The translations under genes and the position numbers were made by a program. DNA of 63,923 bases, the filler included, from Reclinomonas americana ATCC 50394 (Eukaryota): NCBI GenBank assembly GCA_048213135.1. It is 8 parts of 8 records of this genome, joined end to end, with 100 filler letters (N's around TTAATTAATTAA, not from the genome) between each part and the next. Parts side by side here need not be neighbours in the genome. Positions count along the whole stretch, not along the records: positions 1 to 9,360 come from AFZH01017878.1; positions 9,461 to 22,512 come from AFZH01017879.1; 6 more parts are not named here. One strand, given 5' to 3'. The notes below the pieces were generated by a model. It worked only from the letters and a program-made list of their open reading frames with translations. It ran no database searches and was not told the origin of the DNA. Shown piece by piece: positions 4,823-43,905 of the stretch (its first letter is position 1; each line of letters begins with the position of its first letter).

Positions 4823-7529
4823 ATGGGTGGCTGCTGCTCTTGTCTATGCGGGGAGCCGGAGGTGGAGCTTGTGCGCGGCAAGCCGAGCAGTGATTCGCGG
4901 CGCCAATCATCGTCGTCTTTGTCGTCATTGTCGACGGTACATCGTCCGCTGTTGCGCGAAGACTCGGCTGCACAGCACGACACACCCGGCCATCGCGCAG
5001 GCGACCGACAGATGACGGTACGCGAGAATGCATGCTGTGTGTGCGTGATATCTGTTTCACACTCAAGTACTATGCAGTCATTGTACTCGTCGCCGCAACC
5101 GCCGCCACTGAGGACGGCCTCGCAGGCGTCGGATGCAATGGAGGCGGATCTGGCGGCCACGCTGCAGTTGGCAGACGAGGTATGTGTCGAATCATCGTGC
5201 TCATGGCCGGTGATCGATTCTCATGATGTGGACCAGGTGGAGGGCGCGGTGCTGCATCGCGGCAGTGACGGCGGCGGTGAGCTGAGTCCCGAGACGCGAC
5301 AGCAGTTGGATTCCATGCTGGCGGTGAAGTTGCCGCCGATGAAGCATCGTGCTCGAGTTTCGCTGTTTTTTTCGCCGTTTGCGTCGCCGTGTTAGAAGTG
5401 CACTCACCGGCGTACTGCCTGTGTGTGAACAGGTGATTCGAGAACTGCTGGAGACCGAGCGCAAGTATGTTGACTCACTCCGCGTCGTCGACGAAGTTGA
5501 TTAGTCGAGCCGCTGCTGTCCTCAGTGTCGGCGATTTTGACAGCTGACTGCGTGTATGTGTGTGTGTGTGTGGCGCTCTGTAGGTCTTTATCGGACCCCT
5601 CCGCGCGCAACAGATTCTACCTCCCACCGTCGTGGATCAGATTTTCGGCGATCTGGCTGTGTGCGTTCCTCAGTAGTGTCGGCTGTACGTACCGCTTTGT
5701 CTGTGCTAACATTCCGCGTGCGCAGTGTGCTGCAAGTCAACGAGCGGTTCCTTGCCTCGCTGGTCGGGTTGTTGTGTGTTCTGCTTGTCATTCACCAGCT
5801 TCGTGACAGGCATGTGAAGCTGAAAACACGTACGTGCAGGCGGAGGCCGTATCAAGCACGCTGCAACTGATTCACGAGGAAGGCCACGACTTGTGCGTCC
5901 TCTCCTCCTTTCCCCGTGTTCTCTGAGCTCGCTTGCTTTCTCACACATGCACGCGCACGTAGAACTCCCTTCCAGTGGTACCAGTCGCTCAAGGAACTCG
6001 ACCCGAGCAACATTTTTCTACAAACGGCACAGACATTCAAGTTGTGTTGACTCTGTCACGTGCTCCGCACGCCGTCATCCTCGCTCACACGAGCGTGTGC
6101 ATAGATTGTACACAGACTACATTAATCGCTTCCAAGCGTCACAGACGGTGTTGACACAACGGCGAAAGTCGTCGGCGGCGTTTGCGGCGTTTTTGAGAGA
6201 GGCGGAGACGGATGCGCGTCTGCAGGGTGTCAACTTGGAGGTTTGTAGTGTATCGTGTATTGCACGCCATTGGCGCGCACGCACTTCTGACTGCATCTGC
6301 CAACCAGGGTCAACTTGTGAAGCCCATTCAACGATGTGCGTGGACGTACACATACGCCTCTTGTTTTCTTCCTCTCACGCATGCCGCGCTTGTCAGTGCC
6401 GAGATATGTGCTGCTGCTGCAAGATTATCTCAAACACATGCAGGCAGACGATCCGAGCTATTCCACTGTCGCGCACGCGTTGAAGACTGTCAAGGAGGTG
6501 TGTCATGTCGTGCTGCGATGTAGAATTGTTCTGCAGTCTGCTCACCCCGCCCTGTGTTCGTGCAGATTGTTGCGTGCAGAAACCACGATGACGTCCCTCG
6601 GTGTGCGTGAATGTGGTACTCACTTTGTGGTGCTGTACGTAGACCGAGTATTGCAACAGCAAGAAACGGTAATCGCGTGTGTCTCTCGGTTGTACGCCAC
6701 TGCATTCACATCGGCCGACACTCGTATGTGCGCACAGAGAGTACGACAACATTCAACGAGTTCGTGAGCTGGAAAAGACGCTGCGCTTGCCGGTGAGTCC
6801 CTGTTTTGGCTTGTCTCCTGAGTCTTGATGTGGTCTTCTCAACGCATCATGCAGGTGGCGTCGGTGTGGCGCCGACTGCTGCGCGAGGGCGAGATCACCA
6901 AGGTCAAGCACCGTGATTCGCACCAGGTGAAGAAATGCCGTCTGATCGTCTTCAACGACGCCATTGCGGTGGCGCGAAGCACACGGTTGTCTTTCGGTGC
7001 CAAGGTCGATGTCATCGATCTGTCCGAGTACACCGTGAACGCCGTGGCACTGCCCGCTGCTGGTGCGTTTTTTATGTGCATATTGTGTTGCAGCACTCAC
7101 TTATCTCGTATCCGTCGGCATTGTGGTGGTAGGCTCCGGTTTTCCATTCGTTGTCAGTGTGGTGGGTGGCAAGGCATACCACTTTTTGACGGACACTCTC
7201 GAGGAGGTGCGTGCTTGCTGATCACATCATGTTGTCTGTCTCTGCGTGTTGCACACTCTCACTTGCCCTGCGTGCAGTGCAATGAGTGGCTCGAAATCAT
7301 TACCAAGGCCGCCAGTGAGGTCGGCAGTCGCGAGGAAGACATGTCGGTGGCCGCCATCACCAGCATGCTGCTGACCACACGGCGATCAACAACGGGTAAC
7401 TTGGACCCGCCAGACCTCCAGTCGCACTCTGCCGAACTTGGTTCGCAGGGATCCATGTCGAGTTCGGCGCCCATGGTGTCCATGTTGGATCCGTCGGCCC
7501 GCTTCATCGACCCACCGCCACGGCGATGA
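4823..7529 (+). CDS. Dbl-family RhoGEF (DH-PH) with N-terminal myristoylation/palmitoylation motif
   Basis: Starts MGGCCSCLCG. DH motifs RARVIRELLETERKYVDSL, LYTDYINRF, LVKPIQRVPRYVLLLQDYLKH; PH motif RRLLREGEITKV..LIVFNDAIAVAR..CNEWLEIITKA. Many GT-AG introns. Confidence 0.9.
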
Positions 7530-7589
7530 TCAAGGCTCCTGAGGTGGTCGTTTGGTAATTAGCTTTTTATTATTGGCGACACGCGTAAA

Positions 7590-10500
7590 TTACACTTGCG
7601 ACTCCAACAACAATGGTCTGCGACAGAGAGAATGTCAGTCGACGACGAATGTCAAAACACGACTCAAGCCTTCGTACGTACCGTCGCTTAACATCGTCCC
7701 CAAGCAGACTCATCTCCAGCATCTGCAGCGTACGTGGACGACCCATGCGCTGCTTGTAGATGCGGTCATCGGCATCCGCTCTGGCGTCGCGCTCGAGTTC
7801 GTCGATGCGTCGCTGCTCTTCCAACTGATGCGCTCGTAGAGCGCGAAGTTGCGGATTTCGCAAGAGTGTGACGGCCAGGAACCAGCGATTGAGAATGCGC
7901 TGTCGCCTCGCCATCTCGCGCCGGCGACTGGCAATCTGCTCCTCGAGACGACGAATGACACTGGCGTCTCGTCGATTGATGTTTAGCGAGCCACAGTGCT
8001 CCTTGATGCTGTGGGGGAGAAAGAGAGTCACGCCATGTATATCGACATGAAGGAACACGCAAACGCAACTGTTCGGGGCTGTTGTCCTTGCGCCACCGTC
8101 GATCCTCTTTGATGGAGGTGAATAGCATGTCGCAGAACTGATTCACAATCGGATTGTTGTGGAGATAGGCGGTGCGCACCATGGCCAGCCTGTACACACA
8201 AGCGAGATGAGCATGACGGTGTGTGATGAGCACGGGTGCACGCACGCACCAGCCAGCATGGCCAAAGTCGATATGCAGCACGTGTGCCGGCGTCGGAATG
8301 TCCACTGCCACAAAATGGCGTGAGTGGCAACGATCGATGACTGCACGCACGGACTGACAAGGTGAACAGGCGAAACTTCGCATGTAGCCGAGGGCGCCCG
8401 AGACGAAGTTGAAGAGCAGGCGAAGCGACGAGTACAGCAAGCCGGGCACGTACGACACCAGACTGTACACGGTGTCGAAAAACAGGAAGAACCGGTGGTG
8501 CACAATGTCACCCGACTTGACCAAGAAGCCAAATCCGACGCTGCGACGAGCAATCATGTGAGCTGCGGGTTGCAAAGAAAACTAACTCTCATTTGTTAGA
8601 CGCAACACGTAGTAGAGCACGCGTAGTGCGATCTCTGCAAGTTACGCACCAAGTCAGTCACCAACAGCGACACAACAAAACACTGGTGCGGCAACTCACC
8701 AATGCTCAGCAGCGCCACCAACAACACTCGAAGACGATCCAGAATAAAGTCGCGAGATGGTCTCCAAATGAACAAGAAGAAGAAACCACCAACAACCGCC
8801 GTCAACAGCACAAAGGCCACGGCGATTCCCCTGCAGAGAGCAGCCGTCAGTAGCGATCGTACGACCCTCTGTCGCCGTTCCTCCTCACCATGTTTGCAGC
8901 GCAATGTACATGCTGGCAGGAACGGGAGTCGCATGTCGCACCTCTGGCATTGGCTTACCCTGGCGCAGTTGCATGATCTGTATCGATATCGAACGTGATT
9001 GTGAGTCGCTCGGTGGGGAGAAGGAATGCGGCGACAACGGACGAAACTGAATGGCGGAACGCCTTGAACATGATATACAGGGACAGCGTGATGCCAAAGA
9101 CAGCACAGCCGGCGCCAATGTACACCGATTGCGACAACGACTCGCTCCACGCATAGTAGCCCTGGTTGGAGGCAGCAATGAATTGCATGGCTGCCGATTT
9201 GGCGAGATGCGTGCTGTTGGTCGATTGTTGCAGCTAAGTGACGAAAAAGAGAGAGCATGAGCGTCGTAGTCACAGCAACATCCAGAAGAGCGCAATCAGT
9301 CGCACCGACGAGATTTGCGGGGTTGTCAGCGTGTGCGTCGAGAGGAAGGTGGGCACATCTNNNNNNNNNNNNNNNNNNNNNNNNNNNNNNNNNNNNNNNN
9401 NNNNTTAATTAATTAANNNNNNNNNNNNNNNNNNNNNNNNNNNNNNNNNNNNNNNNNNNNGCGACGCCTCTTGGCAGTTGGCAACTGGTAATCAAATGTC
9501 AGCATGGAGAAAAAAAGCGACTTGCAGTCTACGAGGAGACCTTGTGGAACCATGCTGGCTGCCCGGCGCGAGCGTCCTGCTCAACCTCGTTGGTCAGCAG
9601 CCGCCTTACCAACAGGCGCTGTTCGTCGGATCGCACCCTTGTGAACTGTGTGTGATCACGTAGACATCTGTCAGAAAAGATGGAAAGGCAGAAGGGATAT
9701 GCGAAGGGAGAGAGCACGCAACATCCAGCTGCTTTGCGCGCGCTTTGTTCACAAACAAAAAGTACACTTGCTGAAGAACGGCGCCCAGTGTCAAGAGCGC
9801 CACGAAGCTGTGTTGTGCCAGAGACAGAGCGAGTAAGCATGACTAATCAGTTGCGTGAAGAAGCAAAGCAACGAGGAGAAGAACTACGACGCAACGTGAC
9901 GAGAACGAAAAATGAGCCTGTGGTGAGTGAACAACAGGCAAAGTTAGTGAGGAGCATTAACTGTGACCGACCGCACAATGGCAACTCTGTTCGCACCCTG
10001 ATACTTGTCGGGCGACGAGTATAACTGAGGAAAAAATCACGCTTTGATGAACACGCAAGCACAAGTTTGTCGGCACATCACGGTCGCCTTACCAAGTGAT
10101 CGTAGTTTGCCCAGCGTGCGAGCAGCCACAGGAGGTTGGCCAGGAAGCCGAGGCAGCCAAGCAGACCTGCACGAATATACAACTATCGGCACTGCGTTCT
10201 ACGCACACAGGCGATGAAACGCACTCTCACCAATGAAAATGAAGGCAGGGAGAATCCACGCTGTACAACAGTATTATCAAGACTAGTCGAGGTCAAAGTG
10301 ACTACGACTGCTGAGAATCCACTCACCAGTGACCGACATGAAGATCGGGAGACTTGCCAGCGCCACAATGTACAGGCCATTCTGGCAAGCAGAGCAACTT
10401 TAGCCAAATACACCTCTACAACAGGAGAAAAGCACAATTTGGCGGCACAGACCTCCCACGTGTCCAGCGATTCGGTATTAATTTGCGACGGGTTGTCGAA

Positions 10501-13500
10501 CTCTATGCCTTCCGACGCCTCCGAAGCGACACCATTGCAAACTGCGATGAGCTGCACCGGACCAGTGGGGCCAGACAGAATGCTGACGCCTTCAAAGTTC
10601 GCGACGCCGTTGTCGTTGGTAGGCCACACCGTGTACCCAGAATATGGATATGGCTGTGTAAGGAAAAGGTGAGCGAGGAAACAAGAGCAATCTACCGATT
10701 CGCACCACTCGCACGCACCACATTGACAACGTGACTGGAGGTCGCCGGAATGAGACTGCAAAATGTCTGTGGCAGCGCTCCGCCTGCAAGGTTTTGCATA
10801 AGAAACGAATCGTCACACAGTCTCATACGACACAAGCTCACCAGTGGGGGACAGCGCAACAGCGGCGACCGTGAATTTCTCGCCGAGGCTGATGTTTTTC
10901 GGCACCTCGGTCACTCGCGCGCTACCGACGGGATTCGTGAGCGTGAAAGTCGGTAGCTGGTACTGACTGTTGACACCGTAGGACGCCACGATATAGTAGG
11001 AGCCTGGACGACATGTGAGTTGGACAGATGAGGATGATAGCCGCCATTGCAAGGCAAACCTGGCGCTCCCCACTGAAACACCACGCCGTCGGTGCATGCA
11101 TTACCGAGGGGTCCGGTGACAAGCACGCCATTGTTGCCGCTGAAGCCGGGGCTTGTCGGAAGCACAGTGACCGGCATGTTGGCAACCACATTCAACGCAA
11201 TAGAAGCACCGCTGACAGGAGATCCTGTTCGCAGCAGCGCTTTCACGCACACTGGCAACGCGGATGGTACACCGACTTCCACGGTCGACGGCATCGACGT
11301 GACGGTGAGTTGGTCAGGGAACACCGTCACCACGAGTATGTCAGTCAGTGCGCTGCGACGAGTGAGTAGGAGAGAAACGCTGCGTGAATGCGCGAAATCC
11401 TCGCTCACACACACCTCGTGATGCCCAGAGCACTGAACTGCAGGCGATACTGGCCAGGAGGTGCAACAATGCCCAGAGTCGAGAATGTCGCCACGCCGTT
11501 GCTACGCCAGCGAGTGAGCAAGCAAAGTCGAGACTCGACAGCGTTGTTGACTAAAATCAATATACCTGTTGGACTGGACTGTGGGATTGATAAGGGAGGC
11601 TACAGACGCCGTTCCGCTGGCGGCCAGCACAGAAGCAGTGACCGTCAGCGGCTGATACGGCGCCTGCCAACCCTGAAACTGTGTGCGCAACAGAATGAGC
11701 ACAAGAAAATATGGACGACTGTTGAGATTACTCTCGCAGACGCAACGGATATCCGCACGGTTGGTTGGTAGGAGGGTGGGAACTGCTGGCCGCTGCTGCA
11801 CACTGGTGGTACACTCCACTGTACATTGAGAGCGACAATCGGGTTCACTTGCAGCACCACGTTCGATTGCGGACTGCGAGCGGCTGTGAGTCACCAGACG
11901 ACAAAGAGTGCGGGTGTGATAACTCGCGAGTACCTCCACATTTGCGGCTCGGCAAACGGCAGAACAAACGACATGGTGTGATTACCAGTGGGACCGCCCT
12001 GATAACGTTGTGTGAGCGATGCGCATCGTTCCAAGCACCAAGAACACAGAGGCGAACTCACGGGAAACACAAAGTTTGTCAAGGTGGCCGTGCCGGAGAC
12101 ATCGGTGATGGTGTACTGCGTCGACACTACGCCGGGGGCGTAGGACACAAACACACTGTCGTACGCGAGTGAGGAACACTCGACCTTCTCCAGCAATTGT
12201 TGCTGTCGTACGTGTGTACGCAACGGAATGTGGTTCACAATGTTGCCGCCTTGCGTCGGTTGCAGAATGGCCGCAGGCGATTGAGCGAGCACCTGTGATA
12301 CGTACGGGCTGCTCGGCGACACCAGTGGCTGTTGCGCGAACGCAATCGACGACACTGTTCACGGAGGGAATGAGTGAGAGAAAAGTGAGAGAAACGAGAG
12401 CACAACGAGTCACCTGGATTCGGGCAAGCCCCCATTATCATCAGTCCGCCGGGTCGTCCACCCGAAATCGGTACGAGTGGCAGACGCTGCGCAGCACGAG
12501 TGGATGAGTGACAAGAGATGTAGCAGATGAAATGAGCACACACAAACCTGATAGACTCCGCTCCTGACTCCTAGTTGCAGCGTGGCACAACCTGTAGTAC
12601 GTGACAGTCAACAACAGTGGCAACACGTATACAGTTCGACTAGTGTTGATCTTGAGGAGACACTTACCGTTGGCGTCTGTCGGTAGCGGCGCCGTAATGA
12701 CCCTGTCAAAGGCCAATTGCAATGTCTGCTGACTGATGAGTGGTTGAATTTGCGTCTCGCCAAAGAGGAGCGCCAGGCCAAAGATGCCGGCCTGCGATGA
12801 ATGTTAGTGGCGACAGATGCAGAAGAAAGACGGACGATGCGCGCACTGCTGACCTGATTGCCGACAAAGATGTAGTCGAGCCATGTTGGAGGCATCAGAT
12901 TGGCATTGGGCATGGACGGTAGGTACACGCCAAGATAGAGCGAGCGTCCGCTCAGCGGCCCATTCTCATTGGAGATGCACACGGTCGGCTGCTGCTGCAA
13001 GTACACACCGGCCTGACCGCATATGGGTGGCTGCTGGACGACAAACTCCGTCACTGTAAAACAGAAACACAGATGTGGGGAGCTGTGCCGATGTAGTTGA
13101 CATGGTGGCGTGCATCAGAGAGCACAAACCGAGATCCGTGGTGGAAAACAGTGGCATGGTGGTAAGATCGGCACCACACTGCAGAGCACTGCGACCAATC
13201 CACAGGCCCATTGTATTCGAGTATGCTGCACACATGACGCAAACGGTGGTGAGGGAGAAGGAAGGGGAGAAAGGAAGAGAGAGGGGGAGCACGCACAGCG
13301 CACGACACGCAGGTTCGCAAAGGACACGATGCCATCGGGGCCCGTCACTGGCATCTTCGAGAGCAGCTGTGGATCATCCCATCGCACATCTGCACGCAGC
13401 GGAGGTTACATCGCAAAGTCGCATATGGCGCGGATGACGCCCACAAGCACATGCTCACCGAAATCGACGCCAGCGGTGATATTCAAGGCGTCCCACGTGA

Positions 13501-16500
13501 ATGGAAAAGGGGACTCTCCTGGAACAGCACGGAGTTGTTGATCCAGTGCCTGTGCGGAAAGCCATGAGGGAGGGAGGGAGGGAGAAAGGAAGGGAGAGAG
13601 AGAGGAAGGGAGAGAGACAAGAAGAGAGATGCATGATGCAAGCAGGCAATCACCTGGTATCGAATCGGCTCGGGCCACGTCTGATTGTAGGCCACAACCG
13701 CTGGTGGGGCATTCAACGGTACCAATATGTTGCATTGTGTGAATGTGGTGTTGTTGATGATTTGGAAGGGAGCACTGAAGCGCTGGACGCCGTCCACAGA
13801 GAAGATGACTTGATACTGTGTGAGGTGTGTGAATAAAAACACACATACAATCTCAGTGATGCGGGGGAGTGAGAGAAAAACACACCACGCCAGTCAAGGC
13901 TGCTGCGATTTGCACATTAACTGGAAGCTCACCCGTCATACTGCAACACTAGCACAGTCAGTAATTATCCGACACACACACAAAAAGCCAGTGAGTACGA
14001 GTGATACCTGGATCGACTTTCCCACGGTCGCTGTGCTCGCAACACAGCCGACGAGTTGGGGAACGGGGAGGAGTCAACGCGTTGCAACGCTAAGAAAACA
14101 CTCTTGCCACCAACACCTGCGAGTAGTTGAATGATTCGTCGGCGACTAGCGTACACATGCACACACAGCGAGAAGGAGAGGAAGAGAGAGAAATGCTGAC
14201 CCTGGGCATTGCTGGTCACTCGGAGAATGGAGAGAAAAGTCGCATCGCTCATGGTCGTCGTGTTGAACGCGACCACACTCGGTGCGTCCACCAGCACTTG
14301 CACATCGGTAATCGATGTGGTGACGTTGATCAGTTGCGACGGCAGCGTGCCCTTGCCCTCGCAAAAGAACGACAGCCGGAATGTACCAGCATCGCCGTAG
14401 GCAGTGAAAGCGAGACCAGAGAACGTGGCCCTGCAGCGCGGTGAGGACGACTTGCGATGTGGACGCCACGACAACACGCCCGCACACATACCGTCCATTG
14501 TGGTCGGTGACTGCGGTGAAGTTCCGCAAACCCTTGTCACTGCTGTAATAGGGCACGGGTAACAACTGAAAGTAGTCGATGCTGCACGGCAGAGAAGAAG
14601 CAGTTGAGTTAAACAAAAAAGAAACGAGAAGGAGGAGGACAGCTTGTGTACCCCTCTGCGAGTGGAAACGAGATGCGAGTGAGACACGGGTCATGAAGGC
14701 GCGCGAGAGGATGTGCACGCAACGAGAAGACGATATCAGAGCAAACACTTTCTTGCCAGGCATGGGATTCTGCTGCGCATCCTGCACCAGAACAATGGGC
14801 TGAACAGCCAGTGGCACACCCTCCACTGCAGACGGCGACGGCTGTTGGAACAGAATGACCGAGCCCACTGCAGCAAGACACAGCGATGAGTGCACTGGGG
14901 CCATACACATAACGCACAGCAAAGATGCTCAGGTCCACCAGTGGTAGTCATCGCCATCGGCTCCGAGTTGTTGATCAGCCAGTCGGAATCCGCGTTCTCC
15001 GACACTGCCAAATCAGTCACATAAGAGAGGAATGGAAAAGGAAGCGAGCCACGGGTGCGGCCGTACCGATGCGCAAGTAGTTGATGGGACTCGAGCTGGC
15101 GGCGAGTGTGACATTGTTGAATGTGACCATGCCGTGCGCGTCCGATGGTCCGCCGCGCGAGTTGATTATGTCAGCTGTGCTGCACGTGAGTCTCCCTTCT
15201 CCTTTACATGTCACGGCGATGGATTACGCAACTGACTACAACTCCAGGGATGCCCATTTGCTGCGACGGCAGCAACACAACATGGGTGTCAAGACGACAG
15301 CGCCGAAGCAAGTCAACTCTTTTTTTTTGCATCACGCTACCTGCGGTTTGGCAGAGGCCACGACAAAGGCGTATGCGCCGGCCACCGGGTTGCCGCTGGC
15401 ATCGAGCAGCTGCACCACTGGCTGGTTGGTGAACGGCGTGCCAAAAGGAATGAAATTGGCTCCGGGACCGCCGCTCGTCAGCACGATTTGTTGCACTGCG
15501 GTGGGAGTTTGTGAGCGGGGACTTGCAAGATGACAACATCAGCATTCCTCACCTGTGGGCGTCACCAGCACTGGACTCGGCGGTAGCTCTACCGAGCCGC
15601 CGCCAAAGTTGATGCCATACGTCGTGCCAATCGCAGCATTGATGTACCAGCCACACCCGCTGGACTCGAAGCGCAGGTCCACAAATCCCGCGTCTCCATT
15701 CTGCACGCAACGCAATCGCAATCTATATGACAGCGCAGGTGGGGCGGTGTGTGAGAAGTCATGAATGTGCGCTCACCAAACCCGTGACTGCGGTGGTGTT
15801 GCCGACCAGGCGAGGGATCGCACACTCAATGTAATTGTAGGCCTCGAATCTGCATCGTGGGTGCGCGTTGGTGCCATGATCTCTCTCCCGACGAGACACA
15901 CGCACGCGCATACGGGGAAGGGTACGCAACGAGTACCGCTCGAGTGCGTCATTCTGACCATACACCTGTGCATACGCTGTCACTGTCGTGCCGGCGACGC
16001 GATTCGTGTCCGTGCCGACGGCCAGAACCTGTGCGCCGCTCAAGTGAGACAGAGAGAATTACGCGCGCAGTGGGTGTGCTTGACGCACCGTCGGCTGCTG
16101 CTGCAGGTTCACATTGTAGTACGCCGTCCGCGAGGGAGTCTGCATCGTGTACACCACCGCCACCTTGGCGGCGGCCAGCGGTTGCCGATTGGGATCCACG
16201 TACACCGAGTGCAGGGCAATGAACAACAGGGAGGTGATGACGGTGGAGAAGATGAGCACGGAGGCTGCTCGGGTTCGAGCGCGGTCGTACACAGCGTCGA
16301 GAAAGACCTATTTTCGCATCATCATCATTTCGTCATCATCATCAATGCATGCGTGATATCGGAGAACACACACAAACACACACGCACCGGCAAGTGAATG
16401 CCCGAGTACGTGCCCGTGCGCGCATCGTACCGTGCTCCGTAGCACTTCCACGAACGGCGGCGCGGTCGGATGCAGCGGTCAATGGCGGCGGAGAGGCCGG

Positions 16501-16753
16501 CGCATCGTCTCTTGTCTTGCGACTCCACGCCCTTCTCGCCCTGGCGGATGGCGCGTACATGTGCCGACGGCAGTCGCACCATGGTGTGCGTGAGACCACT
16601 GGTCATCGACTGCCTGCCGTCATCGTCGTCGTCGCCACGGTCGTCGTCGGCAGTCTCCACGAAGCGCGTGTAGGGAGCGGTGTCTCTCGTGTGTGGAGCC
16701 GCGGCAGTGGGTGCTGCAGAGTCCCCGGGGGGGACAAGCAGTGGAGAGCGCAT
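7590..16753 (-). CDS. Giant membrane protein: N-terminal TM anchor, tandem Ig/invasin-like repeats, C-terminal STRA6/RBP-receptor-like multipass domain (spans gap 9361-9460)
   Basis: C-terminal part has STRA6-family signatures (HRFFLFFDTVYSLVSYVPGLLYSSLRLL, IDFGHAGWLAMVRTAYLHNNPIVNQFCDML, RWFLAVTLLRNPQLRALR). 10450-16200 has repeated F.QQP..G....QP.V...D..GNP..G / TD..G..TF..L units. TM exons at 9700-10380 continue in the same orientation across the gap. Start codon approximate. Confidence 0.75.
9361..9460. other. Assembly gap spacer (44 N + TTAATTAATTAA + 44 N)
   Basis: An identical six-frame-stop linker occurs at seven positions. Confidence 0.98.
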
Positions 16754-18756: not shown

Positions 18757-20410
18757 CTACTTATGACTCAGCAGCTGATCCACTACGGCCTGTGCCTTGG
18801 CGGCGCTAATGCCACAGTGAATGCGAACGAAGCCAGTGTTCTTCGGCTCGTTACCCCAGAACATACTGCCGGGACACACGCCGACGCCCTTTTCGAGAGC
18901 AGCAATGGTCGCCGCCATGTCCGACTCACGGTGGTGGCGGAACATGCCGTACATGGTTCCCTCTGTCAGAGGAGAGAAGGATGAGTAGGATGAAAGGAGA
19001 CTGACAGAAAGATAGCCATACAGACACGTACCAGGCTCAATGGGCTCCCATCCGAGAGCCTCGGCAAACGCCGGTGCCATCAGCTGCCAGTTGGCACGCA
19101 TCAAGGCGCCGACAGACGTCGCATGTGCCTCCATGTCGTCGAGGTGCTCCAGGAGGTACTCACCAAAGGGGATCTGCAGCCACGGCAAGCAAATGTAGAT
19201 CGGGTCGGCCACGCGGAGAATCTGCACCGCACCACAGTCAGCCTCGTTGCGACATCGACATCAAGCGAAAAACAAAAACCTTGGTAATGGTCTCGGGATG
19301 CGAGATTAGGAACCCCACGCGCCATGATTGCACCGAGAGGCACTTGGAGAAACCGCGCGCCACCACCACATTGCGCGGCGGCATCTCCTCCTCCGAAGCG
19401 CCCTTGATGGCGCACGTGTGAGAGTGTCCGTCCCACACCAGATCGGCGTAGCACTCGTCCGCAATAATCAGGCAGTCGTAGGCGCTGCAGAGGGTCACCA
19501 GACGATCGATCTCGTCCTCGCGCCACACTCGGCACGCCGGATTGCTCGGATTGCAGTAGATCAGCACCTGCAAGCCGGCCTTCAGCTCCGTCTCGATGCG
19601 CTCAAAGTCCGGTGCAAAGTCGGCCGTCGACGGCAGGTAGATCGGGTCGGCGCCAAACACGCCGCGGATCTGCAGCAAGTGGTACGTGTAGAATGGCTCC
19701 ACCAGGCTTGCCGCGGAGAGCACGGTGAGGCACAGAGAGAGAATCGAGATTTCGTCTTGGTTCACGTACCCGACGCGCGTCTTGCCCTCGGACTTGGCAT
19801 ACAGCATGGCCGACACGCATCCGCCAGCCACACCCTGCGCGCCACACACCGACTTGCGCGGTAGACGCATGCCGTAGCGCTCGCGCAGCATGTGCAGCAC
19901 TCCCTGCAGGTACACCTCGTCGCCGGTACGCGGCCGGTACTGATGAACTGCGTGCCCCGCCACCCCCCCACCTGCAGTGAGCACACAGACACGAGCAGCT
20001 GTGAACACAGACGCAACGAGCATCGCGCAGGCAAGCCTCTGCGCGCGAGTGGTCAGTGAGTGCAGCAGTCGCCTGGGAGTGATGGATCAGTGCACTCACC
20101 GCCAGCCAACTGCCGCAGCAGCTTTGGTGGAGGCAGCTCAATGATGCCTTGCGCCACACTCGGCAGTCCCTGTGTGCACACGCGCGCGCGTGAGTGAACA
20201 TCTCCCGCTCTGTCTCTGTCTCTGTCCCCCTCACCTGCGCCGCACACCAGTCGTTGATGTCGCGCATCTACAGGTGCATGCACGTGTGTGTGAGAGAGTG
20301 GCAGAGTGGGGGGGGCACGCAGATAAGACACTCACTGTCGGGGAGGGCGGGAGCGTGGACAAGTCGAGCGCGCGCTTTTCCGACGTGGGTTCACCTGATG
20401 CCGAGGACAT
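18757..20410 (-). CDS. PLP-dependent aminotransferase class I/II
   Basis: Motifs YCNPSNPACRV, IIADECYADL, RGFSKCLSVQSWRVGF (PLP lysine), GVCPGSMF..GFVRIHC; several introns. Confidence 0.9.
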
Positions 20411-20631: not shown

Positions 20632-22167
20632 ATGCGCAAGACCGCAGTGAGTGGCAATCATGCACTTGCACAGCGTGCAAGTCACGCGCGTCACACTCCT
20701 GCTCCTCCTCCTTCATCATCCTCTTCTTCCCCCACTGCATCAACTGCAACTGCAACTGAGGACGGTGCTCTGCAGCACTCACGTGCACCGCGTGTGCATG
20801 TGGTGCCGCGCGAGGCCCTCTCGCTGAGCATGTGGCTGCGTCCCACTGTGTGGTGGCTGGTGACGCGCGTGGTGGCGCTCGCCTGTGTGTACTTTGCCGT
20901 GATGTTCAGGTAAATCCCCTTCATTGTCATTTTCTCATTCTCTCTTGTCCTTGTGCATGACAATGACGACACCAACGACACAGTTTGCGGTATGTGGCCT
21001 CACGCGCGGCAATCGCTGGTGATGTGGCTTCCGTGGCATCGTGGCTGGAGTCGAGCAGCTGTGAGTATCTGTGGCCGGATCCGTGCGGAGGCATGTTGTA
21101 CTGGGCGGCGGCGATGAATCAGTCGCAGGTGATGGAGTTGTTGATTGATCAACTGCCGGCCGACGACCTGGCCGAGCGCCTCGACGCCGCCATGATCTAC
21201 GCCGGCTCGCATGGTGACCCGGCCACTGCGCTGGCTCTCATGGCGTATCTGCCGGAATCGGAGTGGGCGACTCGTGTCGACGACTACGGCAACACGTCGA
21301 TCATGTGGGCCATCCGGGCGCAGCAAACCGAGTTGGCGATCAAGCTGATTCGAAAGGCACCGCTGCCGGTGCTGTCGTCTCAGTGCCCGCACCGCTACGC
21401 CGCCATGCATCTTGCGGCGTTCTACGGTCTCGCCACGGTGCTCGACGCCCTGCTGGAGTACCAACCGGCGCCGTATGTGGGCGCCGGAACGTACGAGGGC
21501 GAGACGGTGCTGATGCACGCCTCGTATCGTGGCCACACAGCGATTGTGGAGCGGCTGCTGACGCTGCTGCGTGTGCCAATGGATATCGTGTCAAACACCG
21601 CCACCGGTCACACGGCGTTGCTGCTGGCCACGGCCGCTGGACATGCCGACATTGCATTGGCGCTGATCGATCGCACTCCCGTGATGGATCTCATCTACAC
21701 CAACATGGAGCTGAACTCGCCCGCGATTCTGGCCGCCGCCCGTGGCGACGTGGTGATTATGCGTCGTCTGCTGGAGCGCATCACACCCGAAATCATCGGC
21801 TTGCCCAACTCGAGCGGCAACACCGCCCTCATGGAGGCACTGGAGTCGCGACACATGGAGGTGGCGCACATGCTGGCCGACATGTGGCCCGGCGAGGTGC
21901 TGCGACAGATCTCCGTCAGGGGCGAGACGGCACTGTCACTGGCCGTGGCCACCGGCGACGTGGCCATGGTCATCAAGTTGTGCGAGAAGCGGGCTGCGGT
22001 GCCGCGTCACGTTGCGTGTGGAGGTAGGGGTTGCGCACAGAGTGAGAGGCACAGGCTGATTCATGTGTTTTTTTTCTGTGCAGTATGGCGAACCGCTGCC
22101 ACCGTTTGTGGAGGAGTTCCTCCTGAAGCACGCGGCGCAGCTGTTTGTCAGTGTGGAGACGACTTGA
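20632..22167 (+). CDS. Ankyrin-repeat protein with N-terminal transmembrane segment
   Basis: Exon 1 has WWLVTRVVALACVYFAVMF. The large exon has about 8 ANK repeats (GNTSIMWAIRA, GETVLMHASYRGHTAIVERLL, GHTALLLATAAGH, GNTALMEALESRH, GETALSLAVATG). Last exon ends at TGA 22165-22167. Confidence 0.85.
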
Positions 22168-22323
22168 AGAAAAGGGCAAGGGCGGGACCATCACGTATCC
22201 GTAGAGACGCACTTACACTGATCGCAGTGAAGGAGGGAGCACCAGCAGAACAGCACCGTTCGTAAAAGAGGCATTCATTTGAGGGGTTGAGGGGGGGGGG
22301 GTGGATAAAGGAAAAATTGACGC

Positions 22324-22870
22324 CTAGGCCTGTGCCGGGTGCGGTGCCACGAGAGCCACACCTGCAATGCCCGCGTGCACGATTGTGCGCACCAACATGG
22401 CCAGCGGCACCACGAGCGTGTAATCGCCATAGCCCATCTCATAACTGCGTCGCTCGCGCGTTTTAGAGGCAGAAGTAAGAGTAAAAGCCGACAATGAGTC
22501 ACGCAACATGCTNNNNNNNNNNNNNNNNNNNNNNNNNNNNNNNNNNNNNNNNNNNNTTAATTAATTAANNNNNNNNNNNNNNNNNNNNNNNNNNNNNNNN
22601 NNNNNNNNNNNNGGCACGCCGAAAACACGTGAGTGAGTATGCATGCATGCATGAAAACCAAACACGACGCAGCGGGTGCAAACGAAACGCGAAGAAGGCG
22701 ATTGGTCGCTCGCGAGAAGCACAGGAGCACACCCGCGGCCAGGCAGATCGCGCTGCACAATGGTCAGAGCGATGCAAGGAGACAAAAGAAGCAAGAGAAG
22801 AAGATGCGCGCACCCTGCCACGCGAAGAATGAAGCCGCCAATGCGAGTCTCCTGTGTGCATCAACGACGA

Positions 22871-23319: not shown

Positions 23320-25967
23320 ATGAGCGACGAGCACCAGCAAGTGTTGCACATTCTGCGGCACCCGCTGCAAGTGATAGACGCGTCCTTTGAGGAGATGGTG
23401 AGCAGTGGGGAGGAGCAGGACGCTGCTGCGTGTGAGCAGGTGTGTGCGCAGGCGCGAGAGAGTGTCGATGCGTCGGGCACGTTTCGACCAGCCGCTGTGG
23501 GCGAAGACGCCGTGCTGCAAGTGATTCACGATGAGTCGGTCTATGCCAGAGTTGCGATCAACAACAACACATGGAGATCGATCACACATTCTTTCTCACT
23601 CTCCCCGCACAGATTCCGCTGTTGAATGCGTGCCGACAGCGTGATCTGGTCGACGGGTGCATTGTGCGGTACCGGTGCATGGTGCAAGACATGTGGGATC
23701 CGGAGCTGTACGTTGGCACGTTTGTGTTGCATCACGCGGCAAGTGGAGCTGTGCGTGTTGTCCATCACAAGTACCGCGATGCGCTCGATGTGCCTGTGCG
23801 TGACTGTCCCACCTTTCCTTGTGTGCATGTGCCATCTCACTGCGTCGTGCGCCAGCCTGGATGTGACATTGACACTGATTTCACCAATCCGCTGGTGGTG
23901 ACGGCACCGCGACGATCATAGTTGCGACGCAGCAGTGTTCTTTCCCTCCCATCTGCCGTCCTTCTCATGTTTGTTTTTGTTGGCAGTTATGCGGTGCCGG
24001 TGCCGGGTCTCACCGAGTGGGCGCTGGCCTCGCAGCAGGAGGAGAATCGCGCGAATTGCTACGGATGGGGCGAGGATGTGTTTGTGGTGATGGACGACGA
24101 GAGGCAGAGGCGGAAGCGACGGGCGGTGGCCGACGAATCCGATCCGCTTGATGTGCGACTGGCTTCGGGTGCCGCGGCTGCGCAGGCGGAGAGCGACATG
24201 GCACGTGAGGGTGGTGCGCCGTCGAAGCGCAAGCGTCGACGGGGTGGTGACGACGAGGTAGATGACGACGACGACGACGATGGTGAGGAAGGAGGCGCGA
24301 GAGGGCGCATGATGGACGACGGTGACGGCGGTGAGGGAGAGGAGGATGAGCATGGCGACGACGGGGAACGTCGCAGTCGCGCAGGCCCATCGCGCTCGTC
24401 GGCGTCGTCCGGCACCGCTGCTGCGGCTGCGGCTCCCGGTGCACGGGTTCCGGTGGCGCAGATTGGCAATCGCAATCTGCCGCTGGCCTCTGCCGACCGA
24501 GCGCCTCCGTGTGTGCTGCATGTTGCGCGTGGGCGTGTTGTCGCGTTTTGCTCCGGAGCGTTGACTGAGAGAAAGAGGGTGTGCGACAGATTTACGACGA
24601 GGAGACCTCGGTGGAGAGCATGTTCAAGATCTGCGACGTGATTGAGGTGGTCGGCATTCTCGCCGTGGACGGCATCAGCGATGACCTGGTGTACACAGAC
24701 GAGTTGCGTGCAGTCGATCTCCTTGTGGTGTTGGCTTCCTTGTTGACGACGAGTGTGTGGTTCTCGTGCGCAGAGGTGCACTGATGAGCGAGTTCCCCGA
24801 AGATGTGGCCGCACACCACCCGCCGCACGCCTTTGTTCCGCGCATTCACGTGCTCGCACACCGCCCGTTGCCGACGCTGATCTCGCCGATGGCACTCTCG
24901 GCTCCCTCCATTCCCGCGGCGCTCGGCGAAGTGCGTGAACACCTGATAGACTTTCTCGCGTTCCACTTGGGCGGCGATCGGCTGGCCGCCACGTACTTGC
25001 TGCTCAACTTGATCTCCAGAGTGTTGCGTACATGTGCACATGCACAGAAGCGTATTGCTTTGTCTCACCGTCTGTCGTGTTGCTTGTGCAGAGAGGATCG
25101 TCGGTACGATCAGCCACTCGGCACATTTGCCTTGTCACTGGGCATGCTGTCGAGCGCCGACGTGGAGCGCCTTGTGCAGTGCGTGATTGCACCGCTGTTG
25201 CCGGCGTTGCATGTGGTTCGCTGCTCGCCCGAGGCTCTCGGTGCCGCGTCGATGGTGCCGTGGAAGGACCTCACCGAAAATCGCTTGAAGGCCGGCGCAC
25301 TGCAGCTGTGTGCTGGCACGCATCTGTGTGTGGACGAGACGGTGTTGCGCGAGGGCGCCGTGGGCGAGGTGGCAGCGCGCAACATGCAGGCGCTCCGCTC
25401 CGTCGCCGATCAGCAGACCCTCGAATACGATCTGGGCTTCTCACCGAAGACATTCTACACCGACATGCCAGTGCTGGCGTTCACCACACACCGCAAGTCG
25501 ATTCTCGATGTCTGTTCTCTTTGATTCCCTCCATCGTTGCACGATTGCTCACTGCGGTTTTGTGGTAGATTCGCTGCTGCGTGCCTCTCGCCGGTCGCGT
25601 CGCGCACGGCGGTGACATGACTCCATTCGACGTCAACATTCCCGATTTCCGCGCCTACATTGCTCACGTGCGCACGCTGCGTGCACGACTCGACGAGGCC
25701 ACGTCGGAACTCGTGCAGACGGACTATGCGCGGTTGCGCAGCGACGGATCGCATGGCAACGTCGATCAGGTATGTGTGTCTCTCGCTCTGTGTGCGTGTG
25801 AGGGGTGTGCTGCTCACTTGCATATTTTTGTCGTGCAGTTCAAACTGAGCATGTGGCTGGACGCGGCCAAACTGCTGGCGGCGAGCTACGGCGAAGAGGT
25901 GGTAACGGCGGAGCGATGGAGTGCAGTGCTGGGCGCTGAGCGCGATCGCTTGGATCGACTGCGATAG
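23320..25967 (+). CDS. MCMBP: Mini-chromosome maintenance complex-binding protein
   Basis: Motifs IVRYRCMVQDMWDPELYVG, ICDVIEVVGIL, VPRIHVL, LGGDRLAATYLLLNLISRV, PWKDLTENRLKAGALQL..GTHLCVDETVLREG. Eight introns of 59-71 nt: 23551-23612, 23796-23855, 23921-23986, 24522-24589, 24703-24773, 25023-25091, 25510-25568, 25770-25838. Confidence 0.93.
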
Positions 25968-27686: not shown

Positions 27687-27786
27687 NNNNNNNNNNNNNN
27701 NNNNNNNNNNNNNNNNNNNNNNNNNNNNNNTTAATTAATTAANNNNNNNNNNNNNNNNNNNNNNNNNNNNNNNNNNNNNNNNNNNN
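27687..27786. other. Assembly gap spacer
   Basis: N44-TTAATTAATTAA-N44. Confidence 0.98.
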
Positions 27787-29370
27787 GTGCTGACCTCGTT
27801 GACGCGCAGCAACAATTCACGTCGGCGAAACACTCGTTCGAGGTCAACGAGCGAACGCTGGATGCGCATGCGGTGTCGATCAAGTCGCAGCAGGATGCGT
27901 TGTACAGGAAAATGATCGAGAACAACAAGTTTATCATGGCGCTCGAGGCCAAGACGGCGCGTGCGGAGAAGAAGACGCGTGAGGAGGCCAAGTCGAACGA
28001 CCGACTGGAGCGCGAGGTGAAGCAGAAGGAGCGGCAGTTGGAGCGCATTCAGGAGAAGCGCGAGAAGATGTTGTCGACGATCCGTCTCTTCGAAAAGTAC
28101 AAGCACTTTATGTTTGCGTATCTGGAGCACGTGCAGGACCAGTCGGGTGGCGACTCGGCCGGTGGTGGCAGTTGCGTCATTCAACCCAGTTGTCGTTGCT
28201 GTTATTCTCGTCGGAGTCCTCATCCTTCGAGTGTCACAGCCGATGGCGCGGTGAGCGCCACCCCGGAGGCCATTATCGCGCGCTACCACATGCTGATGAA
28301 GCAGTTTTCGGATCTGCACGAGCGGCGTGCGGTGCTGGAGACGCGCTTGGAGGCCGCCCGGCGTCTCCTGCAGGAGGAGTCGGTGTCGCTGGTGGTGCGA
28401 CAGGCGAAGAAATCGCACGAGTGCAGCGAGTTGCAGCTGGAGCTGGAGCAGGTGGAGTCGCGGCAGGAGCTGGAGTCGCGTGGTGCACGGCGACGACGTC
28501 TGCGTGATCATTCGAACGCGGGGAACATTTATCGACTGCGCGGTGCCATCAACAACCTCTACGCTCTGTGCCTCACGCAGTCGGTGCAAATGCAGCGGCA
28601 GGCGCAGCGTGCACCACCACGCACGCTGGCCGATCGTGTGCAGATGATGGGCCGTTTCTTCATCGACCTGCAGGATATCGTGGAGGAGTACAAGCACCAG
28701 ATGACACTTCCAGTGGACCCACCGGCCTCGGGTGGCCCGGTGCGTGACGAGATGCTGCGTCATTGCCAGCCGCTGGGTGATATTCGCGAGATGGACCTGC
28801 GAGTGATGGAGGAGAAGGCCAAGCAGGAGGAACAACACCAGCAGAGGCGACGAGCGCTGGCGGCGGCGCGCAAGGGTGGTGCCAGTGCAGCGGCTGCGGC
28901 AGCAGCAGCAGCAGCAGCAGCCGCTGCCGGTGGGTCGAGTCACTCGCCGTCACCTGTGGCCGGCTCCAGTGCAAGCGGTGGCGTGCAGTTCTCGAGTTCC
29001 GCACAGGCCGCCATCCGGGCGCATCTGAGCACGGGTCCACTGTCGCACATGGTGCAGGCGGCGCGCAACTCATCGAACCACTCCTCGGCGCCCTCGTCAC
29101 GCCCGCACTCCAATGCCGGCGGCGATCACTTGGACGTGACGGCCGTAGAATACGGGTTGGCGCGTGGCAAGGCCGAAGTCAGGGCCAACTATGATCCGCC
29201 GACCTTTGTGCTGGTCAGTAGCGCCAGTGCAAGCCGGGTACGTCTTTGCTCTTGCGTCCTTGTTTGTGGAGTGCTTGCTACTGACCAAACTGTGTGTGCA
29301 GTCGCCATCGCCCGATCCCGAACCGGCCAACTTGCGCGGCCGCGCTCGACCAGGCACCGTCAAAGTGTAG
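27787..29370 (+). CDS. Coiled-coil DUF4200 protein, CCDC42/CFAP73-like; 5' end lost in gap
   Basis: Motifs NKFIMALEAKTARAEKKTREE, FEKYKHFMFAYLEH, PEAIIARYHMLMKQFSDL, LRGAINNLYALC, QMMGRFFIDLQDIV. In-frame 69-nt GTTGCG intron at 28171-28239; last exon ends at TAG 29370. Confidence 0.7.
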
Positions 29371-29765
29371 TAACAGGGGGCCAGCGACAGCGATGTACCA
29401 AAGAAAAATGTAACAACCCACAGAGCTAAGAGGAACCTCGATTCTCTTTCACACCGACGTGGAATCTTTTCCGGTGTGCATCGCATCGCGTGTTCGGATT
29501 TCAGTCGCATCACTTCATTTTCTTCTCCTTCGTTTTGCACGCGCACACCGACAGGCGACAGGGTGAGAGGTGAGCAATCCACATACCTTCCTCACTCACA
29601 AGACACCGACGCACGTGTGTCCCGGCTGCTTCCCATCGATTGTCGTTCTGTCGCGAGAAGAGAGAGAGAGAGAGTGCGAGATAGATACCCGCATCGCCCC
29701 TCATCCTCTGCTTCTGCTCAGCTCTCACCCTTGCCCCCCTTCTTTCTCTCCACCTAGTCATCATC

Positions 29766-31683: not shown

Positions 31684-33871
31684 TTACATGCCCTGCGTGG
31701 ACCAGATCTTGCGCAGCTTGCGCTCCTTAATCTTGACGTTGTTTCGTCGGCCCGCCTGATGGCGTATTCTCTTTTGTGTGTCGCGGCTGAGAGCAGCACG
31801 AACCCGGTGCTTCACAGTCTCCGAATCCACCGCACTGGCACCGACTCCCTCCTCGTCATCACTCTCCTCCTCGTCACCAGCACTGTCACTGCCCTCTTCT
31901 CCATCCTTGTCAGCCACAACCGTGGTGGACGACGAGCCTGCATCTGCGGCGTGCGAGCGTGAGTGAACACTGGGAGTAAGACGACACTGCCAAGAAGCAC
32001 TCCGCACAAACCAGCGCTGACAGCCACCATTGCCTTCTCTTCCTCCACCGTATCCTCCTCCTCGGAAGAACTGTCTTCCTCAGTGCCGGACGCAGAATCG
32101 CTGACCTCCTCGCCGTCATCACCACCGCGTGATGCCAGCAACTTCTGCAGCCGCTTCTCGTCCTTGGTGGTGAAGCCTGACGCAGCCACCTCCTCGTCCA
32201 GCGTGTGCGACGACACAATGTCTTCGAGGCGTGGCCAGTAATCCAAATGCACGTTGAACCGCCGTGCAAAGAACGTGTGCAAACACTGCACATCACGCTC
32301 GAAATACCTAAACGAGTGCTGTAAGCGCAACAGCAGTGAAAGAGTCCTGAACAGGAAAAAGGCAACGCAACTCGGCCGCATTGAAGTGATGAGTGGAGAC
32401 CATTTGCGGAAAATCAATCACCACAATCCGTCGCTTGATGTCGGCCGGCAAGTGCTGCGCGCGGCGGTTGTGACGGAATTCGGCGGCCTCCGCGAGAGGG
32501 TTCTCCGAATCCGCGTCTGCCTCCCCTTCGTCGCTTCCACTTTCACTGGAATCCTCTGCCCCTGCGGCTGCGGCTGCTCCTGCTGCTGCCGTGGCGATAA
32601 CATGCGCATCACCAGCGTCGTCTCCCTCCTCGCAACTGTCATCATCATCATCATCATCATCGTCGTCGTCGTCCTCTTCCGCATCAACAGTGCCCGCTGG
32701 TCTCCTCGACACCTCCTCCGCGCCCACGACCCCGTCATCATCACCATCGCCCTCCTCTTCATCCTCTTCGTCGCCGGCCTTGTACTCGAGCATCAGGTTG
32801 AACTCGTTGAAATCGCAGTGAATGAGACCGTGCTCCGCCAGATGCACGATGCTGTCCAGCGACTCGCGGAACAACTCCAACGCAATGGAGGGCTTGACTG
32901 CCTTCATGTTGGCCCTGGGGAAAAGAAGGGACGCTGTCAACACGAGGGAGCGCGTCAACATTCTCATCCAAGAGAAACAACGCAACAGAGTGGTGCCAGG
33001 CACCAGATCCATGACCAAGCAGTGGCGATTGTAATCCACCGGTTCGGGCACCGGGAAGCCCTCCTTGTGCAGCGCAGCCATGAACGCGTGCTCCTTCTGC
33101 GCCGACAGACGCGACATGTAGAGCCACGAGGCACTCTTGCGTTTCCCGAGATAATCACGCTTCTTCTTCACGGCACGGAACGAGGTGCGACCGAGTCGGT
33201 GCAGCTTGAGCACACGATCGTTGCCTTCCGCATCCACCACACGGTACACGTCTGCAAAGCATGTGAGCACACGCACACACACTCTCAAAGGTATCACACA
33301 CCAGCCTCCTTGCCGACGCCAATCTGACTGCCGACAGCTGCCACAGTGCCGCGCTCCATGAACACGCGCAGCGCCAGGAAGTCGTATCCCAAGTACGTCA
33401 GGCAGTACCCATCGTCTGCACACACACACACACACACACGAGTCAGCGTTGTCACAGACAGACAGAGAGAGCGAGATTCTCACAGGCACGCAACAGTGCT
33501 TGCCATCGTGATGAATCAACTTGTGCTTCAGCAGATTGGTGATTGTGTGGAACGTGCCGCCACGCTTCAGTCGCGCAATCTGCTCAATCTGCGACGGGGT
33601 GCGCGCGCGTGTGTGTGTGAGAGGAAGGCGGTGTGAATGTGCACATGGCCAAAAGCAGGCCCACCACCACAACCACACACACGCGCGCTTACCAGTTGCA
33701 CAGGCACAAGCTCGTGGTTCTTCATGCCCACCTCCACCGCCGTGAGGACACGGAAATCCTCCTTCTGTGGAACATACAAACAGACAGTTATATATGAGCA
33801 AGGCCACCAGCGCAGGCACGTAGACGGGGACGCACCGACAAGTAGCGCAGTTGCGTCGCGTCGAGCTTCAT
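31684..33871 (-). CDS. RIOK2: RIO2 atypical kinase (pre-40S maturation)
   Basis: Motifs [97 protein letters not shown]. Confidence 0.96.
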
Positions 33872-33954
33872 GTTGTGAGTGAGTGAGCGAGTGTGTGGAC
33901 AGTCGTGTGTCGCGAGCAATATCCATCACACGCGATCGACGAGAGAAGACGACG

Positions 33955-42336: not shown

Positions 42337-43905
42337 TCAACGCAGGTACTTGTTGATGATGTTGTCGATGAACCACTGCTCGGTGAAGCGCAGGTGCTGT
42401 GTCGAGTGAAGAGAGATAAGAGTGAGCTCTCTTACGGGGTACGGGAGTGGGAAGCAGTACGCAACATCGCCGACCACGGACAAAAAGTCAATCTTTCCGG
42501 CCTGATCCAACACCTTCAGACCGAGCCAGTCCTGCTGGTACACGTCGGTCTGCTGCAGCGGAATCGTCTGCTTGTCTTGTCCAGGGGCGTAGAATCCGAA
42601 CCACTCCGAGTCGCGTGGTTGCACCATGCTGTACACATGGTCAGCGATTCGCACACGAGGCAGCAGAAAGCACCAAGCGACACACGCAACGAGTCCTCCG
42701 TGAACTTGACCAGCACGAACCTGGTCATGGCAGGAGCTCAACGCGTGTGAGAGAAGGAGAGAAAAGACGGCAGCGAGTGCATCGCAACTTGTTCAGCGAC
42801 TTGAGGTTGACGGCATACGTGGAGTTCTTCTGTGCCTTCTGGTTGTTGATGTCGGCAATGAACTGCGACTTGGCAACGTACTCCTGCGACAGGGGGATGA
42901 GCAAACGCGGTAGCCGACGCTGCTGCTGCTGTCTGTCTGTGTGCCCTCGCACCTGCTGCTTGAACGGATCGTTCCAGTACTGCGCCTGCACCAGTCGGTT
43001 CTGCACAAACTCGACATACGCACCCACATCGAGCAGCTCACGCATCCACTCGCACAGCGTGTGATTCGTGGCCTCGCAGCGCGGCAGTCCGAACACGCCT
43101 GCCGCCCCCCAAAAAACCCGAATGAGCGACAACGAACGCACAGTGAGGAACACACACAAGCCGACGTCACCAAAGTGCTGGCCACCGACGGAGATCAAGT
43201 TGCGCACTGGCGGATCGTTGCAACGCTGCACGTACGCACGGAGGAACTGACCGCCCTGGGAGAAACTACCAAACAGACGGAGAGGATGATGAGCGAAAAA
43301 AACGCTGATTCCTTATCTCCTCGACGCAACCCAATGGCATTGAAGCCGCCCTGCAGCTGCGGATCGGCCTTGAGTGCGGCGCACACCATGGCGATCTGCT
43401 CGTTGACCGGCTTGAAGAAGCTGTCGATCACACGAGTCATCATGAAAAGAAAGAGAGAAGACGATTTCTGAAAAAAGAGGACGCAACCCATCGTATTGAT
43501 CCTGCTCATCTGAGCTGCCAATGCGCACCGAGTGCACATACGATCCCGTCTGCTTGGTGATGAGCTTGCCCAGGTCGGCCATTCCCTGCTCCACACAGTG
43601 AGTCACACCAACACATATCACAGACAGTGAGCGACACAAGTACCGGTGAGTTCGACCAGTCGCCCATGCCATGCCACAGCACCACCGGCAGTGAGCCGCC
43701 ACCCAGTGCCTCCTCCAAGTCTATGAGAGCGCGCGCGTGTATGTGAGTGAGAGAGAGAAAAGGAGGAGTCAATATATGTGAATGACAACACGCGCTCACC
43801 CAGAGTCGTCACATCGTCAAGTGACACCGCGTGACTGGTGCCAAGCAGCATGGCCACCGAAAGCACAGTCAAGCACGCGGCGAGGAGCAGCGCGCACTTG
43901 CTCAT
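42337..43905 (-). CDS. PPT1: Palmitoyl-protein thioesterase 1
   Basis: Signal peptide; motifs PVVLWHGMGD, FNAIGFSQGGQFLR, NLISVGGQH.GVFGLPRC, VQNRLVQAQYWNDP, FIADINN, VQPRDSEWFGFY, DWLGLKVLD, GDHLRF. Confidence 0.96.

Follow-up and report, generated by a model that had tools for sequence, protein, structure and literature searches.

The minus strand of a 63,923-nucleotide stretch of Reclinomonas americana ATCC 50394 DNA (hereafter the window; assembly GCA_048213135.1, eight records joined by spacers) carries what we read as a single gene for a large polytopic surface protein, transcribed from position 16753 to 7570. In our preferred interpretation, to which we give a probability of about 55%, its membrane domain is a distant relative of the animal protein STRA6 with a tandem array of extracellular modules built into the same polypeptide. 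We regard the architecture itself as real: an N-terminal anchor helix is followed by the tandem modules, a multi-pass membrane domain and a STRA6-like helix in the C-terminal tail. This list of parts is what was observed, and from it we infer a receptor-transporter function.

The gene model was built by hand, reading the DNA by eye after automatic exon chaining. Its 5′ part consists of 36 exons (16753 to 9610; 4,500 nt, 1,500 aa, zero in-frame stops) and its 3′ part of 7 exons (9359 to 7570; 1,272 nt, 423 aa and the stop codon), with a scaffold gap at 9361-9460 between them. The exon-chaining script had arrived at the same ATG at 16753, from which it built 23 exons running open-ended into the gap, and at a second chain of 5 exons leading from the gap to the same stop. 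An eighth 3′ mini-exon (8634-8587) was dropped, as it would imply a 24-nt intron. The product of a single gene is likely to have ~1,923 residues and, in addition, those concealed by the gap; it is encoded by 43 exons with short GT-AG introns. This agrees with the ~2,000 aa estimated in a preliminary description of the locus, which had also placed the start correctly; its 3′ limit of 7590 is slightly off.

Introns of the model are 50-165 nt long, mostly 56-87, begin with GT throughout and end with CAG in 40 of the 42 listed, a regularity that is partly by construction because the sites were hand-picked. Introns are very dense (at least 41 in ~9 kb, 7570-16753) and uniform in length, with a median of ~65 nt. 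Introns of this size combined with ~57% GC are akin to those of some small protist genomes. The 104-nt intron between exons 14 and 15 contains a purine-rich tandem repeat at 13566-13629 (GAGG plus the 16-nt unit AGGAAGGGAGAGAGAA, as read on the plus strand).

Coding potential was scored with a codon log-odds table trained on seven Pfam-supported open reading frames (ORFs) elsewhere in the window. The 5′ part scores +176 in frame against -395 and -312 in the other two frames, and the 3′ part +78 against -110 and -81, while introns are negative in all frames. The model frame is the best of the three in 35 of the 36 exons of the 5′ part; in six of the 36, the in-frame score is slightly below zero. 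P0001, a related protein that is continuous across the last splice junction, confirms this junction.

Exon 1 scores +14.0 in the model frame, compared with -23.9 and -31.6 in the other two, and the 543 nt upstream of its ATG have negative scores in all frames. Residues 1-139 constitute a hydrophilic tail. It is followed by the helix SVLIFSTVITSLLFIAL (TM0; Kyte-Doolittle hydropathy peak of 2.33 over residues 136-161), so the tail and single transmembrane segment of the preliminary description were both recovered. Since there is no in-frame Met within the 80 residues upstream of TM0, this helix is predicted to be a signal anchor and not a cleaved signal peptide.

Residues 171-1375 can be divided into ten units of 100-145 aa (typically ~115 aa), designated U1-U10, where at least six beta-rich repeats had been proposed; the four peptides quoted earlier as examples were all found in minus-strand ORFs at their expected places. 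The units share a motif in the N-terminal half (..QP.V.v.D..gnP..G..v) and another in the C-terminal half (TD.NG.a.F..l....G.Y.l.f). Val, Ser, Ala, Pro, Thr and Gly are abundant in the ectodomain, whose content of Lys, His and Glu is low, and there are 13 N-x-S/T sequons. Pairwise similarity of the units is modest: ORF-against-ORF BLAST gave pairs with E from 6e-4 to 0.02, a profile of four N-halves found one further copy (E 0.003), and a profile of the short C-half motif found no copies past its own seeds.

A leave-one-out comparison, in which each spliced unit was matched to a profile of the nine remaining ones and 200 shuffles were made per unit, gave 20.1, 9.6, 30.1, 15.2, 3.1, 7.5, 12.4, 13.3, 18.5 and 17.7 bits for U1 to U10, respectively. 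The real score was reached by 0 of 200 shuffles for every unit, with a thin margin for U2, U5 and U6. Of the 1,444 window ORFs, the unit profile matched 23, and these all belong to the minus strand of the interval 10186-16307. All ten units thus belong to one tandem array of homologous ~100-aa modules.

The array had been called Ig/invasin-like, an assignment that found no significant support. The best match of the Big_1 profile, found in one of 30 ORFs, has an E-value of 0.057 and scores 14 bits where the cut-off is 34.9 bits. None of eight N-half pieces matches any Pfam family at E up to 10, an NCBIfam scan of 18 ORFs returned nothing relevant, and a search of PDB with the N-half profile had nothing better to offer than phycocyanin and Fab light chains (E 0.12 at best). 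Both fold models made for the array stayed below 40 in predicted local distance difference test (pLDDT) score. The pattern of the module motifs (..v.D..GNP..G..v ... TD.NG.A.f...G.y.l) does resemble what we take to be the Big_1 consensus. Bacterial invasin/intimin arrays (Pfam Big_1) likewise consist of tandem ~100-aa modules rich in Val, Ser, Thr, Pro and Gly, and one low-confidence model of the R. americana array is all-beta. The differences are that the R. americana array has no significant profile match, and that it belongs to a eukaryotic gene with 29 introns in the array part. This many introns in a eukaryotic array makes a recent transfer from bacteria unlikely.

The multi-pass domain begins with six short exons. 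They encode a hydrophobic stretch of 45 residues that makes up two helices, then a loop on the outside, one more helix and a cytosolic loop rich in Lys and Arg; the corresponding hydropathy peaks are at residues 1382-1428 and 1444-1471. Three or more strong hydropathy peaks are encoded by the six exons after the gap, together with weaker hydrophobic stretches and a juxtamembrane region of amphipathic character. By the crude measure of Kyte-Doolittle hydropathy there are ~3 helices before the gap and three strong ones plus weaker ones after it, and part of the domain is hidden by the gap. The last exon encodes an Arg/Glu-rich tail, predicted to be cytosolic. A hydrophobic stretch near its end stops three residues short of the C-terminus; it may be an extra helix or a tail anchor, and STRA6 presumably has no such stretch.

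Kinship with STRA6 is suggested by the last exon. Pfam and PDB scans were run on single exons (unspliced translations), and the last exon matches positions 563-605 of the 605 positions of the Pfam family RBP_receptor (PF14752) with an E-value of 1.2e-4 and 21.4 bits. As ~147 sequences were scanned against Pfam, ~0.02 such matches are expected by chance. An exhaustive phmmer search with the last exon (1,835,955,588 representatives) returned three matches at E up to 1e-3, one of which is a true relative. This is P0001, a singleton of 111 aa encoded on a 2,397-nt contig, which is 56% identical to the last exon in the phmmer match (E 1.7e-12) and 52% identical overall. The two proteins do not differ in the motif core RRQR.LNRWFLAVTLLRNP.LR. 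P0001 also matches the C-terminal end of the RBP_receptor profile (E 6.7e-5, 22.2 bits), again below the cut-off of 25 bits. The other two matches, P0002 and P0003, were rejected as compositional: they are internally repetitive and align with the Arg/Glu-rich tail.

When a profile made of the last exon and P0001 was compared with PDB, zebrafish STRA6 (5sy1_A, residues 560-628) was the first of three matches, and the alignment extends upstream of the helix into a ..K..CG.. segment. These residues contain the CaMBP2 peptide as quoted in PMC7154012, where this 27-residue peptide of STRA6 is described as making the most extensive contacts with calmodulin. A C-terminal cytosolic helix of the CaMBP2 type is present in the R. 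americana protein, and calmodulin binding is predicted from its sequence. The RW.LA.TL..NP.L motif noticed earlier lies in this helix. The best PDB match of the last exon by itself was trypanosome mitochondrial aspartate aminotransferase (4eu1, 4w5k; E 0.0028), overlapping ..W...LL.NPQL.., which we judged to be a chance match.

As to the earlier claim of a multi-pass domain with STRA6 C-terminal motifs, it is supported for the tail helix, which matches the C-terminal end of RBP_receptor; the score is below 25 bits, and the other membrane exons match nothing. Word-indexed searches of the last ORF and exon 8099-8539 against longer proteins, and of the U7 ORF against proteins of similar length, gave no homologues; they covered proteins of up to 2,000 aa, so that a longer annotated copy may have escaped them. 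Metagenome scans gave no relatives. Taken together, STRA6 kinship below the Pfam threshold is plausible, and true homology of the membrane domain with STRA6 appears probable.

A number of points weigh against a single-gene STRA6 relative with its own module array. The RBP_receptor match remains below the 25-bit cut-off and covers 43 of 605 positions, the 5sy1_A match has an E-value of 1, and a phmmer search of PDB with the last exon alone does not list STRA6. Five other membrane exons have no Pfam match, two membrane exons found nothing in PDB, and a language-model protein atlas gave no usable match for two exons. No full-length relative was found, so the architecture has been seen only once. 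Retinoid transport in a protist without RBP4 is unsupported. The gap at 9361-9460 is unsequenced. For the array, the repeat statistics are partly circular because some small exons were chosen by the repeat motif. AlphaFold2 in single-sequence mode gave mean pLDDT of 37.1 and 39.1 for two unspliced stretches, the second of them all-strand; these values are too low to assign a beta-sandwich fold.

Some of these points would suit a protein with the same single-gene architecture whose membrane domain is no homologue of STRA6, the short amphipathic tail helix of calmodulin-binding type being convergent and the multi-pass domain belonging to an undescribed lineage-specific family, for example of adhesion receptors or channels. 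The short sub-threshold profile match, the five membrane exons lacking Pfam or PDB matches, the atlas result and the hydrophobic stretch at the extreme C-terminus, which we take to be foreign to STRA6, are all in its favour. We nevertheless consider it rather unlikely, as the RBP_receptor E-value survives correction for the ~147 Pfam queries and the match is located at the STRA6-equivalent place, in the cytosolic tail directly behind the final helices. The profile, moreover, has STRA6 as its top PDB match, with an alignment reaching the upstream ..K..CG.. segment. That the locus is a pseudogene, or a series of open frames that line up by chance, is highly improbable: some exons show only weak codon bias (six of 36 slightly negative in frame), but 4,500 and 1,272 nt are stop-free over 43 exons, the codon signal is frame-specific with a table trained on other genes, and P0001, which comes from another organism, is conserved at 56% identity.

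Another possibility is that two genes meet in the gap, one for an adhesin-like protein with a C-terminal three-helix cluster and the other a shorter STRA6-like gene with its 5′ end in the gap. The gap length is uncertain, a gap elsewhere in the window seems to hide at least 300 nt (see below), and no read or transcript crosses 9361-9460. However, coding-like open frames enter the gap from both sides, with codon scores of +3.5 (9553-9461) and +5.3 (9359-9274) in the gap-open frames and negative or near-zero scores in the others. Membrane helices lie directly beside the gap on both flanks, and strand and order are consistent. The earliest in-frame ATG of the 3′ part would fall no sooner than midway along a hydrophobic helix, and the helices of the two sides sum to roughly nine, the number that PMC7154012 gives for STRA6. 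We therefore find two genes unlikely and a single gene across the gap, as inferred from the flanking signals, likely. Since the STRA6-like region is modelled at ~540 residues and the zebrafish protein has 670, at least ~100 residues could lie in the gap.

The comparable case in the window is a gene for a flavin adenine dinucleotide-dependent oxidoreductase (Pfam DAO). Profile positions 3-48, 155-240 and 301-345 are found at 52133-52405, 51624-52031 and 51281-51535, respectively, on the minus strand. Each piece is weak singly (E 1.7e-4 to 1.2e-3), the pieces are collinear across the gap at 52032-52131, which speaks for one gene at 9361-9460 as well, and ~105 profile positions are absent, a hidden length similar to the one possible at 9361-9460. 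The preliminary description had taken the gaps in general to preserve order and orientation. This is borne out at one of the six other gaps, the DAO one; at 59087-59186 the C-terminal part of EMC3 alone was detected, and the remaining four gaps are uninformative.

The topology that we propose has the N-terminal tail inside and the modules outside, as a first extracellular loop of ~1,200 residues. The multi-pass domain would enter the membrane from outside, as in STRA6, and the C-terminal tail would be inside. The earlier statement that the ectodomain is tethered at both ends follows from such a topology, but amounts to no more than a very large first extracellular loop. The module array may bind a ligand, a carrier or a surface and would in this way replace the soluble carrier RBP4, which is docked by animal STRA6. 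The membrane domain might then pass a lipophilic molecule between the extracellular binding surface and the bilayer without energy use, and calmodulin on the tail would couple the protein to Ca2+. Capture of prey or ligand and uptake of lipids or retinoids, as suggested in the preliminary description, are speculation.

In polycystin-1-type receptors, a multi-pass domain is preceded by tandem Ig-like PKD repeats. The R. americana protein is similar to polycystin-1 in that a surface array of beta modules is covalently joined to a polytopic domain of channel or transporter type whose cytosolic tail is regulatory. It differs in that no PKD, REJ, GPS or PKD_channel match was obtained in the Pfam scans, and in that the array is anchored at both ends.

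With STRA6 and RBPR2 (PF14752, 5SY1) the protein shares a multi-pass domain followed by a cytosolic tail with a CaMBP2-aligned helix. The domain N-terminus would be outside and the C-terminus inside as in STRA6. STRA6 forms a dimer whose protomers each have nine transmembrane helices plus a long intramembrane helix, and the helix count here, taken with the part that the gap hides, would be compatible with nine. STRA6, however, has ~670 aa with a short N-terminus and docks a separate soluble carrier, whereas ~1,380 residues precede the domain here. The N-terminal tail, the anchor helix, the ten modules and a longer tail with a hydrophobic end are extra, and sequence similarity does not reach beyond the 43 profile positions at the C-terminal end.

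Coordinates of the gene parts, the scaffold gaps and the other annotated genes of the window are collected in Table 1. The window DNA is eukaryotic, with GC of 0.52-0.62. All seven gaps are 100 bases long and composed of 44 N, TTAATTAATTAA and 44 N; the central TTAATTAATTAA is a six-frame stop linker. CA or GA microsatellites are present at several contig ends adjoining the gaps. A RhoGEF-like ORF (5824-7526, plus strand; E 2.4e-5, below the cut-off) is convergent with the STRA6-like gene and ends ~40 nt from its stop codon.

Table 1. Parts of the STRA6-like gene, scaffold gaps and other genes in the window (strand: -, minus; +, plus;., none).
Position	Strand	Feature	Evidence
16382..16753	-	Exon 1: start codon at 16753 and ~124-aa hydrophilic Asp/Arg-rich tail, predicted cytosolic	Codon score
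16212-16262	-	TM0, predicted signal-anchor helix, model residues 140-156, Arg on the N-terminal side	Hydropathy
10453..16169	-	Ten tandem beta-rich modules U1-U10, ~100-145 aa each, over 29 exons	Alignment, leave-one-out profiles
9610..10381	-	Six short exons, first helices after the ectodomain	Hydropathy, splice sites, frame scores
9361..9460	.	Scaffold gap (44 N, TTAATTAATTAA, 44 N), open frames entering from both sides	
8070..9359	-	Six exons, rest of the multi-pass domain	Hydropathy
7573..8008	-	Last exon, 145-aa Arg/Glu-rich tail, predicted cytosolic	Junction via P0001
7828..7953	-	STRA6-type helix (..RRQRILNRWFLAVTLLRNPQL..), putative CaMBP2 counterpart	Pfam RBP_receptor, PDB profile search
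7582..7638	-	19-residue hydrophobic stretch, possible extra helix or tail anchor	Peak 1.62, residues 402-420 of the 423-aa 3′ model
7570-7572	-	Stop codon	
9361-9460, 22513-22612, 27687-27786, 52032-52131, 56393-56492, 59087-59186, 61681-61780		Gaps	
19241-20086	-	Class I/II aminotransferase	
20967-22262	+	Ankyrin repeats	
24685-25521	+	MCM-binding protein	
27789-29426	+	DUF4200 coiled coil, begins right at a gap	
32311-34094	-	RIO2 kinase	
42728-43312	-	Palmitoyl-protein thioesterase	
51281-52405	-	FAD-dependent oxidoreductase (Pfam DAO), spanning the gap 52032-52131	
59188-60092	+	EMC3	
60219-61424	+	FkbM methyltransferase	

STRA6 is described in PMC5977736 as animal-specific and as having a transport mechanism unlike that of any other transporter class. 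In the full-text literature, with most subscription journals outside the coverage, no account of a protist STRA6 or of a fusion of modules with STRA6 came to light. We tentatively propose that the fold of STRA6 and the calmodulin-binding tail are older than animals, and that the protist transporter carries its own ten-module capture array between the anchor helix and the transporter. Animal STRA6 may in that case be a shortened descendant, or a cousin, of a wider family of lipid-transfer receptors that are regulated by Ca2+/calmodulin and have ligand-binding ectodomains of their own.

If so, a non-animal relative would move the origin of the STRA6 family outside animals and calmodulin control of the tail would be ancient. 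The R. americana protein would also represent a natural experiment in which carrier docking is replaced by a covalently attached ectodomain. If the homology with STRA6 fails, the gene would define an undescribed receptor family which shares only the calmodulin-type helix with it. Even without the STRA6 link, a ~2,000-residue protein with a ten-module first extracellular loop would be an unusual surface receptor.

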